Shown here: positions 1,171-5,112 of the stretch, piece after piece
How the letters are laid out: each line of letters begins with the position of its first letter
Position numbering within the stretch: the stretch's first letter is position 1
DNA from: a virus
Taxonomy: Duplodnaviria; Heunggongvirae; Uroviricota; Caudoviricetes
IMG/VR virus record: IMGVR_UViG_3300018486_000146
Reading direction: 5' to 3' (one strand)
Length of the DNA: 7,203 nucleotides
Notes under the pieces: model-generated
The model's input: the letters and a program-made list of their open reading frames with translations, nothing else
What the model was told of the DNA's origin: nothing
Database searches by the model: none
Position numbers and translations under genes: made by a program

Positions 1171-1227
1171 CGGTTGTATTCCTTTTTTCATATCGGGGAG
1201 CACGCTGTTGCGAGTGCGCTTTCAGAC

Positions 1228-1255
1228 ATAAAAAAGCCCGTCACGTGAGGCGGGC
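1228..1255 (-). terminator. Intrinsic terminator on the minus strand, in a tL1-like position
   Basis: On the minus strand the sequence reads GCCCG-CC-TCACGTGA-CGGGC followed by TTTTTTAT: a GC-rich stem then a U6 tract. On the plus strand the A-run precedes the hairpin, so it is unidirectional. It sits between the Cys-rich ORF and the downstream early-left genes. Confidence 0.55.
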
Positions 1256-1286
1256 AAAGACTACACACAGCAATTACATGGATGAT

Positions 1287-1481
1287 TCAGTTGGTATTGT
1301 GCGTACGTGGTACCACAAGGTTGAAGCGGACACGCCAGTGCGTTGCAATGGTATGCAGGAAAGCACCACATCCAGGGCAGTGCTCATAACATTCGTTGAT
1401 TTGGTATCGTTTTGGCTTTGGTGTCAGAAGCTGTGTTTGGCAAGCAGGGCATTCACCTTTGAGCGGTTTATACGTTTTCAC
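1287..1481 (-). CDS. Small Cys-rich protein, 64 aa, putative zinc ribbon (CPAC ... CYEHCPGC)
   Basis: GTG start at 1481 preceded by GAGGA with a 6-nt spacer. Five cysteines in a CxxC...CxxxCxxC arrangement. It is the first ORF downstream of the putative pL and is followed about 30 nt later by the terminator. Only 64 aa with a GTG start, so moderate confidence. Confidence 0.45.
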   Translation of the reverse strand: MKTYKPLKGECPACQTQLLTPKPKRYQINECYEHCPGCGAFLHTIATHWRVRFNLVVPRTHNTN

Positions 1482-1803: not shown

Positions 1804-2427
1804 CTAACGTTTACGGCGGTAAATACGGTGTTCGATCATTACACCTATGATCTGTAAGTTCATATCTGCACTACGAAAAATAGGGTAATCAGGATTTAGG
1901 GGGATTAATTCAAAGTCGTCGATGCCGATTCCTAATGGACGGTATTTTTTAAATGTAGCTTCGTGGCCGTCGTTTTTGGCGACAACAAACTCCCCTGGTG
2001 CAGGACATAGATCAGGATCGATGATAACAATGTCTCCTTCTTTAAACTCTGGTTGCATGCTGTCGCCATCGATACGTAATGCGAAGCATGTTTCTGGAAT
2101 GTCAGAGTCTGCCAAAATATATTCAAATTCCCCTGTCAGATCTGTTATGTCTCTTGCTTCTGTAAGCTCTCCTGCCTGAACGTAACTTAATATAGGTATG
2201 CGTCTGGTACTTATCTCCGCGAGAGGCATAATATTTTTACCGTTCAGTAGCCAGTCTGGGCTACATTTCAAGGCCTTAGCCAGATCCAGAAGATTGCGTG
2301 GCTTTCTGGTTCGTCCACTTTCGATGGATTCTATGGATTGTTGGCTAACCCCTGCAGAATTCGCTACTTCCACTTGAGTCATTCCTAATTCCAAACGACG
2401 TGCTTTAAAACGGGCTGCGAGAGACAT
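1804..2427 (-). CDS. cI: cI-type prophage repressor: N-terminal XRE/434-like HTH plus C-terminal LexA-like S24 autopeptidase domain
   Basis: The HTH region (MTQVEVANSAGVSQQSIESIESGRTRKPRNLLDLAKALKCSPDWLLNGK) aligns with the phage 434 repressor DNA-binding domain as recalled. The C-terminal domain carries an Ala-Gly cleavage site (VQAGEL), a GDSM serine motif and a downstream lysine (FKKY), typical of RecA-stimulated autocleavage. Start set at ATG 2427 (AAGGA 8 nt upstream), not the ORF-track start at 2478, which falls inside the operator region. Confidence 0.93.
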   Translation of the reverse strand: MSLAARFKARRLELGMTQVEVANSAGVSQQSIESIESGRTRKPRNLLDLAKALKCSPDWLLNGKNIMPLAEISTRRIPILSYVQAGELTEARDITDLTGEFEYILADSDIPETCFALRIDGDSMQPEFKEGDIVIIDPDLCPAPGEFVVAKNDGHEATFKKYRPLGIGIDDFELIPLNPDYPIFRSADMNLQIIGVMIEHRIYRRKR

Positions 2428-2450: not shown

Positions 2451-2472
2451 TTAATGTGTATCCCCACATTAA
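2451..2472. promoter_or_regulatory. 22-bp inverted repeat TTAATGTG-N6-CACATTAA in the cI-proximal part of the switch; unassigned protein-binding site
   Basis: Perfect 8-bp arms with a 6-bp spacer, 25-45 bp upstream of the cI start codon. It differs from the ACAA-N6-TTGT operators. A related AATGTGG / CCACAAATGTGG motif occurs at 1678-1689 near the left operator. Confidence 0.4.
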
Positions 2473-2490: not shown

Positions 2491-2520
2491 TTGACAAACC
2501 TCGTTTGTTGTTGCTAAATA
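2491..2520 (+). promoter_or_regulatory. pR-like rightward promoter for cro and the primase-helicase (-35 TTGACA, 17-bp spacer, -10 CTAAAT/TAAATA)
   Basis: Consensus -35 TTGACA at 2491-2496; -10-like hexamer at 2514-2520; about 25 nt upstream of the cro ATG. Operator sites overlap it. Confidence 0.5.
2494..2508. promoter_or_regulatory. Right operator site OR-B (ACAAAC-CTC-GTTTGT), a perfect inverted repeat overlapping the pR -35/spacer
   Basis: Perfect 6-bp arms around a 3-bp centre. ACAA/TTGT ends as in 434 operators, but 15 bp long rather than 14. Confidence 0.45.
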
Positions 2521-2547: not shown

Positions 2548-2760
2548 ATGACCTTAGCGACCCGAGTAAAAGAACGACGTAAAGAACTCAAAATGACGCA
2601 AGTTACGTTGGCTGAGCTCACAGGAGTGAGCCAGCAGGCAATAAACAGAATTGAAAGTGGTGTTATTGCTCGGCCACGTTATCTTCTTGAAATGTCTATA
2701 GCATTGGATTGCGACCCTAATTGGCTGTTGTATGGCTCACAAAACGATAAAAAGGCGTAG
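2548..2760 (+). CDS. cro: Cro-like HTH repressor, 70 aa, phage 434 Cro family
   Basis: ATG 2548 with GAGGTG 6 nt upstream (the ORF-track start at 2530 is TTG). The sequence MTLATRVKERRKELKMTQVTLAELTGVSQQAINRIESGVIARPRYLLEMSIALDCDPNWLLYGSQNDKKA aligns along its length with 434 Cro as recalled. Divergent from cI across the operator region. Confidence 0.9.
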   Translation: MTLATRVKERRKELKMTQVTLAELTGVSQQAINRIESGVIARPRYLLEMSIALDCDPNWLLYGSQNDKKA

Positions 2761-2766
2761 CTCCCC

Positions 2767-4959
2767 ATGTCCGATAGCAAACCATGGGGAGCTACGCCTG
2801 ATGAGTGGTTTCATTTCGACCTGGTATTGGGGAGAACTGATCATCTTCTCCCAGTTGTATGTAACCCCAGTGCGACCATATCCCCTGATAGTAAACTGAA
2901 AGCGTTGGGTAAGACGCCGAGTCGCTATAACCGGGACCGCCAGGTCACCGGTATTGCTCAATGGACCGGGCATGTTGTTACTGAGCATGATTTTGCCCGC
3001 TGGTCGAATGAACCGGATTATGGCATCTGCGTGCGTACAGGCCATGGCTGGCTGGCGCTGGACTGTGATAGCGAAGATGAAGACATTCATGCAGATATTC
3101 GCAAAACGCTTGTGCAACTTCTGGGTGAGTTGCCGCCGCGACGCTGGCGAGCAAACAGTAATAAGTGTCTGTATCTGCTGGCCGTTGATGGTGATTTCCG
3201 TAAGCGTATCCATCGCCTGGCGGGGGATATGGGCATTATCGAGTTGCTGGCGAACGGGCAGCAGTTCGTTGCCTGCGGTACGCACAGCAGCGGCGCGCGT
3301 ATTGAATGGGACGGCGGTTTGCCGGATGAACCTCCGGCTATTACTGGTGAGCAGCTTGAAACGCTGTGGCAGCGCCTGGCTGAACAACTCCCTGTGTCGG
3401 TAACCACCGAAGCGGGCAACACGAAGATGCGCGACCGATCAGCATTCACGCCCGGCGCGACGGATGATACAGCTGAATATCTTGATGCCAATGGCTGGAC
3501 GCTGCTGGATGGCGCAAATGGTGAACGATATATCCGCTGTCCGTTTGAAGACGGCCACAGTAGCGGGGGCGATCCAACAAGCACAGTTTATTTTCCTGCG
3601 GGAACCGCGGGCTTTGAGCAGGGGCATTTTAAATGCCTGCATGCCAGTTGTGCGCATCGTGATGACGGAGATTTCCTTAATGCCATCGGGATCCGCAACG
3701 ACGATTTCGAAGATCTGACCAGCACCGAAGTGGCGGAACCTTTACCGCTGCCTGCTTTCGAGCGTGATAAATGGGGGCGTATCGAGGCAACAATCAGCAA
3801 CGCAGCCAAAGCAGTAGTACGCCCTGATTTTGTGGACATCGATATTCGCTTTGACCAGTTCCGCGACGAAATCATGTTTGCCCCTGCAGGATCCGGACAA
3901 TGGCGGGCATTCACCGATGCGGATTATGCGCGCCTGCGCATCACGATGGAAAAGCGGGGATTTAAACCTGTTGGTCGTGAACTTATTCGCGATGTGGTGT
4001 TACTTGCAGCCGATGAACAACCATTCGATTCAGCGATCACCTGGCTGAACGGACTGGAGTGGGATGGCGTGCCGCGCATCGAATGTTTCTACCATACGCA
4101 CTTCGGTACAGCCGACACGCCTTATACCCGTGCGGTGTCTATGTACATGTGGACCGCGTTGGCGGGGCGAGTACTGGAGCCAGGCATCAAAGCGGATATG
4201 GTGCCGATCCTCGTTGGTCCGCAGGGCTGCGGTAAGTCTTCCGGAGTGGAGGCACTGAGCCCTGATCCTGCGTTTTTTACTGAAATCTCTTTTGCCGAAA
4301 AAGACGATGATCTCGCTCGAAAAATGCGTGGTCGGCTGGTGGCAGAGATTGGTGAACTGCGCGGACTTAATACCAAAGAGCTGGAGTCAATCAAAGCGTT
4401 TGTGACGCGTACTCACGAAAACTGGATCCCGAAATACCGGGAGTTCGCCACCCAGTTTCCTCGTCGCCTGGTGTTCGTTGGTACCACCAATGAGGACGAA
4501 TTCCTTGCGGACAAGACTGGTAACCGTCGCTGGCTCCCCGTGGAAGTGTCGAAAGTCGACGTGAAAGCGATAAAAAGAGATCTCCTTTTACTTTGGGCTG
4601 AGGCTCGTGAGGTGTTTCAGCGTCTGGGGGGTATCCAGTTCCGTGAGGCTGAACAACTGGCAGCGAGTGTCCATGAACAGTACACCATCAAGGATGCTTG
4701 GCTTGAAACGGTAGAGAAATGGCTCGACACGCCAGACCTGATGACTAATGAACTTCCGCGAAATTGCGAATTTTTACGCGCAAGTGATGTTTTGCGTGAT
4801 GCGATTGGGCTAAATCCTGACCGCATCGGAAAACGCGAAGAAATGCGAATTAGTAATGTTTTGCAAAATTGCGGGTATAAGCGTGCCCAAAGGCGAATTG
4901 GGGGGAAAATGACTCGAATTTTTGAGGCGGTGTCCCAACCTGTACCAACCTCAAAATAG
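2767..4959 (+). CDS. Replication initiator: primase-polymerase N-terminal domain, zinc-binding Cys/His cluster, and C-terminal P-loop SF3/D5/VirE-like helicase domain (730 aa)
   Basis: N-terminal DxD motif (LALDCDSEDED) and GTHSSG, consistent with prim-pol. Cys/His cluster CPFEDGH...HFKCLHASCAH. Walker A GPQGCGKSS and an SF3-like motif C (VFVGTTNE). Starts 6 bp after the cro stop. Iterons lie at and after its 3' end. Confidence 0.92.
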   Translation: MSDSKPWGATPDEWFHFDLVLGRTDHLLPVVCNPSATISPDSKLKALGKTPSRYNRDRQVTGIAQWTGHVVTEHDFARWSNEPDYGICVRTGHGWLALDCDSEDEDIHADIRKTLVQLLGELPPRRWRANSNKCLYLLAVDGDFRKRIHRLAGDMGIIELLANGQQFVACGTHSSGARIEWDGGLPDEPPAITGEQLETLWQRLAEQLPVSVTTEAGNTKMRDRSAFTPGATDDTAEYLDANGWTLLDGANGERYIRCPFEDGHSSGGDPTSTVYFPAGTAGFEQGHFKCLHASCAHRDDGDFLNAIGIRNDDFEDLTSTEVAEPLPLPAFERDKWGRIEATISNAAKAVVRPDFVDIDIRFDQFRDEIMFAPAGSGQWRAFTDADYARLRITMEKRGFKPVGRELIRDVVLLAADEQPFDSAITWLNGLEWDGVPRIECFYHTHFGTADTPYTRAVSMYMWTALAGRVLEPGIKADMVPILVGPQGCGKSSGVEALSPDPAFFTEISFAEKDDDLARKMRGRLVAEIGELRGLNTKELESIKAFVTRTHENWIPKYREFATQFPRRLVFVGTTNEDEFLADKTGNRRWLPVEVSKVDVKAIKRDLLLLWAEAREVFQRLGGIQFREAEQLAASVHEQYTIKDAWLETVEKWLDTPDLMTNELPRNCEFLRASDVLRDAIGLNPDRIGKREEMRISNVLQNCGYKRAQRRIGGKMTRIFEAVSQPVPTSK

Positions 4960-5112
4960 ATGTTGGTACATTTTAACTAATTGAATTTAAAGGCCGGTAC
5001 CAACTGTACCATCTGTACCAACCTAATTACTAAGAACCCCATATATATATATAAGTCGCTTGGGGAAAAGGTTTGAAAAGAGCTGGTACAGGTGGGTACA
5101 GGTTGGTACAGG
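4931..5112. repeat. Iteron array flanking an (AT)n tract: putative phage origin of replication
   Basis: Core TGTACCA(ACC) in direct orientation at 4931-4950 (two tandem 10-mers inside the primase 3' end), 4996-5004, 5005-5013 and 5014-5023. ATATATATATATA at 5041-5053. Inverted copies (C/T)(T/G)GGTACAGG at 5083-5092, 5093-5102 and 5103-5112 with exact 10-bp periodicity, plus one inverted copy at 4961-4970. Confidence 0.65.

Follow-up and report, generated by a model that had tools for sequence, protein, structure and literature searches.

A perfect palindrome at the predicted cI promoter of a phage-434-type prophage switch is probably an incidental feature of the core promoter

How should we read a perfect palindrome that sits between the divergent cI and cro genes of a prophage, right beside the operators, when its half-site is not that of the operators? 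We take up this question in a stretch of viral DNA of 7,203 nucleotides (IMGVR_UViG_3300018486_000146; the whole stretch is referred to below as the window). A first-pass annotation, made from the letters of the sequence, had drawn attention to positions 2451-2472, and we confirm what it saw there: TTAATGTG-TATCCC-CACATTAA, an exact palindrome of 22 bp with perfect 8-bp arms and a 6-bp spacer. The palindrome starts 24 bp upstream of the cI ATG (2427 to 2425, minus strand), and a perfect operator, ACAATTTTTGTTGT (2475-2488), sits 3 bp to its right. The annotation considered such a repeat unlikely by chance, and proposed that it either binds a regulator distinct from the phage repressors or forms a hairpin in the cI leader. 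Here we ask which of these readings, if any, is favored once the promoter is placed by homology and the locus is compared with its relatives.

The window belongs to an E. coli prophage. Among 5426 complete E. coli genomes, 82 match its 1.2-kb immunity region (43 of them at full length), always on the chromosome. In the collection of named phages (INPHARED), neither megablast nor blastn finds a DNA match, and the closest named cI, that of Enterobacter phage CobraSix, is only 60% identical. Besides cI and cro, the neighborhood contains genes for an integrase, a DEAD-box helicase, a family-A DNA polymerase and DUF2800 and DUF2815 proteins; further neighbors are a VapE primase, Q, a holin, a lysozyme and a terminase. 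The cI gene (1804-2427, minus strand) encodes a repressor of 207 aa with HTH_3 and Peptidase_S24 domains that is 38% identical to the cI of phage 434 (E = 6e-43); its recognition helix reads QQSIESIES, with a Ser in place of Gln33 of the 434 repressor. The divergent cro gene (2548-2760, plus strand) encodes a helix-turn-helix protein of 70 aa that is 55% identical to 434 Cro (E = 4e-28). The VapE primase gene comes directly after cro (2760-2767), and downstream of cro there is no cII-like gene or pRE arrangement, unlike in 434. Just 3' of the cI stop codon we also note a perfect inverted repeat, ATTTGTAA-GACT-TTACAAAT (1738-1757), which is semi-conserved in relatives and is followed at 1764-1783 by a GGGAGGC/GCCTCCC hairpin that is probably the cI terminator.

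To place the operators and promoters we use the annotated phage 434 record (GenBank OL657226), in which OR1 to OR3, pR, the pRM -35 and -10 elements and the pRM start are marked. The 434 OR/pRM region can be aligned with the window throughout without a gap, and the two share the 12-mer TTGTCAAATACA letter for letter. OR1, ACCACTAAAATTGT (2520-2533), is identified both by an exact match to the operator pattern and by the alignment; OR2, ACCTCGTTTGTTGT (2498-2511), has a degenerate left half and is placed from the 434 spacing and alignment; OR3 is the perfect ACAA-N6-TTGT site already mentioned. The centers of the three operators are 22 and 23 bp apart, the same spacings as in 434. The OR2 halves read ACCT...TTGT here and ACAT...TTGT in a related lineage (lineage C), and the center of this site varies among relatives. 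As a separate observation, OR3 and OR1 with their flanks (2475-2533) form an imperfect inverted repeat of 23 nt around OR2. The -35 of pR, TTGACA (2491-2496, plus strand), and that of pRM, TTGTCA (2497 to 2492, minus strand), overlap each other within TTGTCAAATACA; the -10 of pR is CTAAAT (2514-2519), aligned with GAAAAT in 434. As judged from these homologies and from the operator geometry, the locus is a phage-434-type immunity switch.

The same alignment assigns the remaining elements of pRM, the promoter of cI. Its predicted -10, TTTTAA or TTTAAT (2474 to 2468, minus strand), abuts OR3 just as the annotated 434 element GAAGAT does, and a G-rich discriminator separates it from an A at 2461 that aligns with the annotated 434 start. 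With these assignments, the palindrome would cover roughly -12 to +11 of pRM and would be centered on +1, so that the first-pass annotation was right to draw it over the probable -10 and start region. The usual A at position 2 is missing from the proposed -10, TTTAAT, and a sigma-70 promoter scan lists neither pR nor pRM; both escape it because their -10 elements break the rule of an A at position 2 and a T at position 6, and the promoter assignments thus rest on the homology to 434. The right arm contains an ATG in frame with cI (2467-2469, minus strand), 14 codons ahead of the annotated start, and a still longer cI ORF starts from a TTG at 2478. The upstream ATG is not conserved in other lineages, one of which (lineage C) has a stop codon in frame, and it lies upstream of the predicted +1, so its use is unlikely.

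The operator pattern itself can be stated compactly as ACMA-N6-TKGT. It has four exact matches in the window (at 1654, 1677, 2475 and 2520), all of them in OL or OR, where 0.56 would be expected; in 200 shuffles four matches were never reached. The two matches on the left are OL1, ACAATTTGAGTTGT (1654-1667), which lies in the pL spacer, and OL2, ACCACAAATGTGGT (1677-1690), a perfect ACCA-N6-TGGT site 23 bp from OL1. One suggestion of the annotation falls away here: the pair of half-sites CCACAAATGTGG (1678-1689), which the annotation had regarded as related to the palindrome, is the core of OL2, is conserved in all lineages and has the polarity CACA...TGTG, opposite to that of the palindrome. 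We assign OL2 as a site for the repressor itself, and the operator half-sites of this prophage family may include ACCA besides ACAA.

How surprising is the palindrome as a matter of chance? Of 5000 dinucleotide-preserving shuffles of the 120-bp cI-cro spacer (34% G+C), 252 (5%) contain a perfect inverted repeat whose arms measure 8 bp or more and are separated by 0 to 12 bp. When the window's four intergenic regions are pooled, 23% of the shuffles hold at least one comparable repeat, and over the whole 7.2-kb window the expected number is 1.4. The most favorable framing takes the 51-nt leader alone, where 0.3-1.7% of mononucleotide shuffles reach the quality of the palindrome. The claim that such a repeat is unlikely by chance in 120 bp therefore overstates the case: the repeat is mildly unusual locally, while 5% of the spacer shuffles do as well or better. 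The palindrome is borderline non-random within its immediate surroundings and without significance once the size of the search is accounted for.

A sharper question is whether relatives with the same switch keep the palindrome. We collect 114 related loci from E. coli genomes, GTDB genomes and IMG/VR, which reduce to 82 distinct upstream sequences. Identity between the window and sister lineages falls into three zones: over 2468-2535, which holds the pRM -10, the operators and pR, it is 91-97% (82% in the most distant lineage); over the flanking cI and cro codons it is 67-87% (72-87% in the sister lineages at 91-97%); and over 2428-2467, which holds the left arm, the spacer and the inner three bases of the right arm, it drops to 25-50%. 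This last segment, with the lowest conservation in the immunity region, is the hypervariable cI leader and includes the Shine-Dalgarno sequence AAGGA (2440 to 2436). The block ATTAAA(T/A)ACAATTTTTGTTGTATTTGACAAAC...GCTAAATACCACTAAAATTGTA is present in all lineages whose cI is 67-100% identical, and the outer ATTA(A) of the right arm is kept in 32 of 32 leader variants. Of the 32 distinct leaders, which come from about 10 lineages, only leaders of lineage A, that of the window (cI 99-100% identical), contain the 8-bp inverted repeat. In the distant lineage L093 an unrelated inverted repeat of 7 bp occupies this position, two lineages have 6-bp repeats made up of A and T only that are not significant, and the remaining lineages have none. 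The closest lineage without the palindrome, lineage B (cI 94% identical), has a leader that is still recognizably homologous, in which both arms have diverged (to CTAATAGG and CACTCAAT on the cI strand) with no compensation. Neither conservation nor compensatory change of the palindrome is thus seen among relatives with the same switch; across lineages only the ATTA(A) of the right arm is conserved, which fits a promoter element and not half of a dyad. The hypervariability of the leader possibly reflects relaxed constraint or diversifying pressure. Leader length is a different matter: it is 50-52 nt in nearly all lineages with a cI at least 71% identical, the exceptions being L003 (47 nt) and L077 (76 nt).

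Within the lineage that carries the palindrome we find three alleles: one with the spacer TATCCC, one with the spacer TATACC, and one, CGCATTAA, that breaks an arm; this last is carried by two E. coli strains (JNE23-001 and 16F5M1D1) whose cI gene is intact. Most copies in lineage A keep both arms whole. The scan for variants, with fixed flanks and a free 22-mer, returned these three alleles only and so has no power on constraint, and the lineage is too shallow to speak for or against constraint.

Taken together, we think it probable that the palindrome arose incidentally within the core of pRM in a 434-type switch and is not a separate element. In this explanation the right arm (2465-2472) would be, on the cI strand, the -10 block TTTAAT followed by the first three bases of the G-rich discriminator, the 6-bp spacer would contain the transcription start at about 2461, and the left arm (2451-2458) would be approximately +4 to +11 of a cI leader of some 34 nt, within the hypervariable segment. 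The -10 block owes its conservation to its role in the promoter, where it abuts OR3. The leader would be free to drift, and in one lineage would have become complementary to the -10 region by chance; TTAA is self-complementary, so only four more matching positions are needed to make the palindrome. Regulation would then proceed as in 434, with pRM repressed by cI or Cro at OR3 (center near -20) and activated by cI at OR2 (center near -43), and presumably no further protein binds the palindrome. There are points on the other side. That a perfect 8+8 palindrome should be centered on +1 by accident is somewhat unlikely (a chance of 0.3-5%, depending on how the test is framed), most lineage-A copies retain both arms, L093 has its different 7-bp inverted repeat at the same place, and the 16-base pattern occurs in tandem in unrelated phages. 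The homology-based placing of the pRM -10 and +1, with a -10 short of its usual A, is a further weak point.

In the best of the alternatives, a dimeric DNA-binding protein distinct from cI and Cro would use the palindrome as an operator specific to this lineage; its gene could lie in the host, in a second resident prophage or in another part of this prophage. Bound over -12 to +11, it would block pRM and stop cI synthesis, as in anti-immunity or cross-talk between prophages. In favor of this reading are the perfect dyad centered on the predicted +1, the half-site unlike ACMA and the local chance expectation of 0.3-5%, and also the company that the pattern keeps elsewhere. Searching IMG/VR for TTAATGTG-N6-CACATTAA yields 28 stretches, of which 10 are the same prophage and about 18 are unrelated contigs, a number near chance level by a rough estimate from the size of the collection rather than by computation. 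In two of the unrelated contigs the pattern occurs as tandem pairs 32 bp apart (L121, 1137-1190; L143, 5076-5129), and in three others of 66-67% G+C (L128, L138, L139) it is embedded in longer palindromes, GGATTTAATGTG-N6-CACATTAAATCC; these five look like true protein sites and are likely operators of other proteins. Proteins with this specificity probably exist, then, none of them linked to the cI-cro locus, and the exact-pattern scans give no link from the palindrome to other enterobacterial immunity regions. The sites in L121 and L143, as well as in L123 and L125, are identical to ours in their 8-bp arms and 6-bp spacer; they differ in that they belong to unrelated phages of low G+C content, come in pairs at a distance of 32 bp and have no 434-type switch in their vicinity.

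Other observations speak against such an operator. Further copies, as would be expected of the operator of a phage-encoded regulator, do not appear: no second copy with up to three mismatches is found in 25 kb of the roughly 40-kb prophage, and the half-site is not enriched in the window. Sister lineages run the same switch without the palindrome, and the allele that breaks an arm persists in nature. With a single shallow lineage, no second copy and such natural alleles, the proposal of a separate regulator site finds no support. The only lineage-restricted small ORF nearby encodes a 64-aa zinc ribbon (1287-1481, minus strand), which is intact in LH50-c, a strain that lacks the palindrome, and is weakly rejected as the cognate regulator.

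Nor does the palindrome fit the patterns of the host regulators CRP, LexA and IHF. It shares with a CRP site the elements TGTG and CACA in the same orientation, but the distance between them is 6 bp here and 8 bp in CRP sites, and no match to TGTGA-N6-TCACA is found at 2451-2472 within three mismatches. The resemblance to the LexA SOS box (CTGT-N8-ACAG) is in the TGT-N8-ACA spacing (ATGTGTATCCCCACAT). The outer C and G of CTG and CAG are essential in a LexA box, and the palindrome reads ATGT...ACAT, so that both of its mismatches fall at the invariant C and G of CTG-N10-CAG; the LexA pattern is in any case common in the window at two mismatches (40 found, 28 expected). For IHF, no match to WATCAANNNNTTR is found within one mismatch, TATCCCCACATTA having two, and a literature search for motifs of the TGTG-N6-CACA type returned nothing relevant. 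We therefore regard a lineage-specific operator as unlikely, and as quite unlikely its more pointed form, a lineage-A operator through which a candidate dimer from the host or a co-resident mobile element would shut down production of the repressor without any need for Cro or RecA. Were it true, the 434-type switch would have an extra, lineage-specific input, and diversifying pressure arising from it could account for the cI leader evolving faster than the rest of the immunity region.

A second alternative places the function in RNA or DNA structure. The palindrome could form a hairpin in a cI transcript that starts upstream of 2472, affecting stability or translation, or it could set up a sigma-70-dependent promoter-proximal pause, through a second TTAAT, resembling a -10, on the non-template strand at +8 to +12. 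Two observations speak for such a role: as an isolated 34-nt segment, the cI strand folds at -9.9 kcal/mol (z = -5), and the self-complementary TTAA makes the non-template strand read ATTAAT at +7 to +12. The predicted +1, however, falls within the palindrome, so that the pRM transcript would contain one arm only; a transcript from 2462 folds at -1.2 kcal/mol, and in its 77-nt context the segment folds no better than shuffles (z = 0.07). Downstream of cro there is no cII gene or pRE-like arrangement from which a longer transcript could come. The candidate downstream -10-like hexamers are weak, matching at 3-4 of 6 positions and lacking the A at position 2 or the T at position 6, and the structure is not conserved in relatives. 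An intrinsic terminator is rejected as well: the terminator scan is empty at the palindrome, whose stem has G-C pairs at 3 of 8 positions and no adjacent T-run (U-run in the transcript). We consider a structural role very unlikely, and the leader hairpin suggested by the first-pass annotation is not favored by the predicted start.

Finally, that the palindrome is an extended or cryptic cI or Cro site, a fourth operator, seems to us highly improbable: it adjoins OR3, its symmetry is prolonged imperfectly by the flanks TTGT (2446-2449) and ACAA (2475-2478), and GTTGTATT is present twice (at 2445 and 2484), but, as the annotation had already held, it contains no match to ACMA-N6-TKGT and its polarity TGTG...CACA is reversed, while the 14-mer that ends with the TTGT at 2449 has TCCT as its other half and 434 has no such site.

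With the incidental reading preferred, it is worth setting the locus beside the systems that it resembles. It shares with phage 434 homologous cI and Cro proteins, three 14-bp operators with ACAA-type half-sites at 22/23-bp center spacing, pR and pRM -35 elements that overlap in the identical 12-mer, and a pRM -10 that abuts OR3 and is followed by a G-rich discriminator and an A as start. It differs from 434 in that its half-sites possibly include ACCA, its OR2 is degenerate, its cI leader is about 34 nt long (18 nt in 434), a VapE-type primase gene takes the place of the cII/pRE module after cro, and the pRM start of 434 has no palindrome. The logic is also that of lambda OR3/pRM, in which pRM is repressed from an operator in its spacer and activated from the one upstream; the lambda operators are different and 17 bp long, the lambda pRM transcript is leaderless, and the palindrome here lies downstream of OR3 and does not replace it. 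Viewed in this way the palindrome is an ordinary finding. What the window contributes is an uncharacterized E. coli prophage family to the set of 434-type switches, with operators and promoters that can be assigned by homology, in a prophage that has a family-A DNA polymerase and a VapE primase and no cII; the palindrome would add to this only if a protein were found to bind it. Of more use are two by-products, the possible ACCA half-sites and a cI leader that is hypervariable between lineages with nearly identical operators.

Several other features of the window deserve mention. Its first 22 bases are CAGACGTGTGCTCTTCCGATCT, which we take to resemble an Illumina TruSeq adapter, and homology to relatives begins at base 22-24; the left end is probably an untrimmed read or an assembly artefact. 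In the gap of about 600 bp without annotation between pL and the first annotated pL gene, positions 1226-1335 (minus strand) match the Rfam RprA family over its full length, at 50.5 bits where the gathering score is 70 (E = 2.4e-4 for the window as a whole). Toward its 3' end the match, AAUUGCUGUGUGUAGUCUUUGCCCG...CGGGCUUUUUU, agrees exactly with the RprA consensus, terminator included, and the 3' portion (to about 1290) can be aligned in sister lineages at 76-81% identity. This may be a prophage-borne RprA-like sRNA or a mimic of one, and none of the titles listed by a literature search describes such an sRNA. Pairing of the RprA-like RNA or of the pL leader with the cI leader was examined because it would have explained the hypervariability of the latter; the duplex energies are no better than those of shuffled leaders, and the idea is rejected. 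The segment 1290-1490 cannot be aligned in most sister lineages, and lineage B has an ORF of 170 aa there. In the window this segment contains the zinc-ribbon ORF mentioned above, which is unannotated and has a CxxC...CxxC arrangement with weak hits to zf-IS66 and TFIIB-ribbon. Just 3' of the VapE primase gene, a cluster of GGTACA / TGTACCAAC repeats in both orientations extends over 4941-5110; within it are an inverted repeat of 9 bp (4941-4970) and three GGTACAGG units in direct orientation (about 5085-5110). This cluster is probably an iteron-type replication origin.
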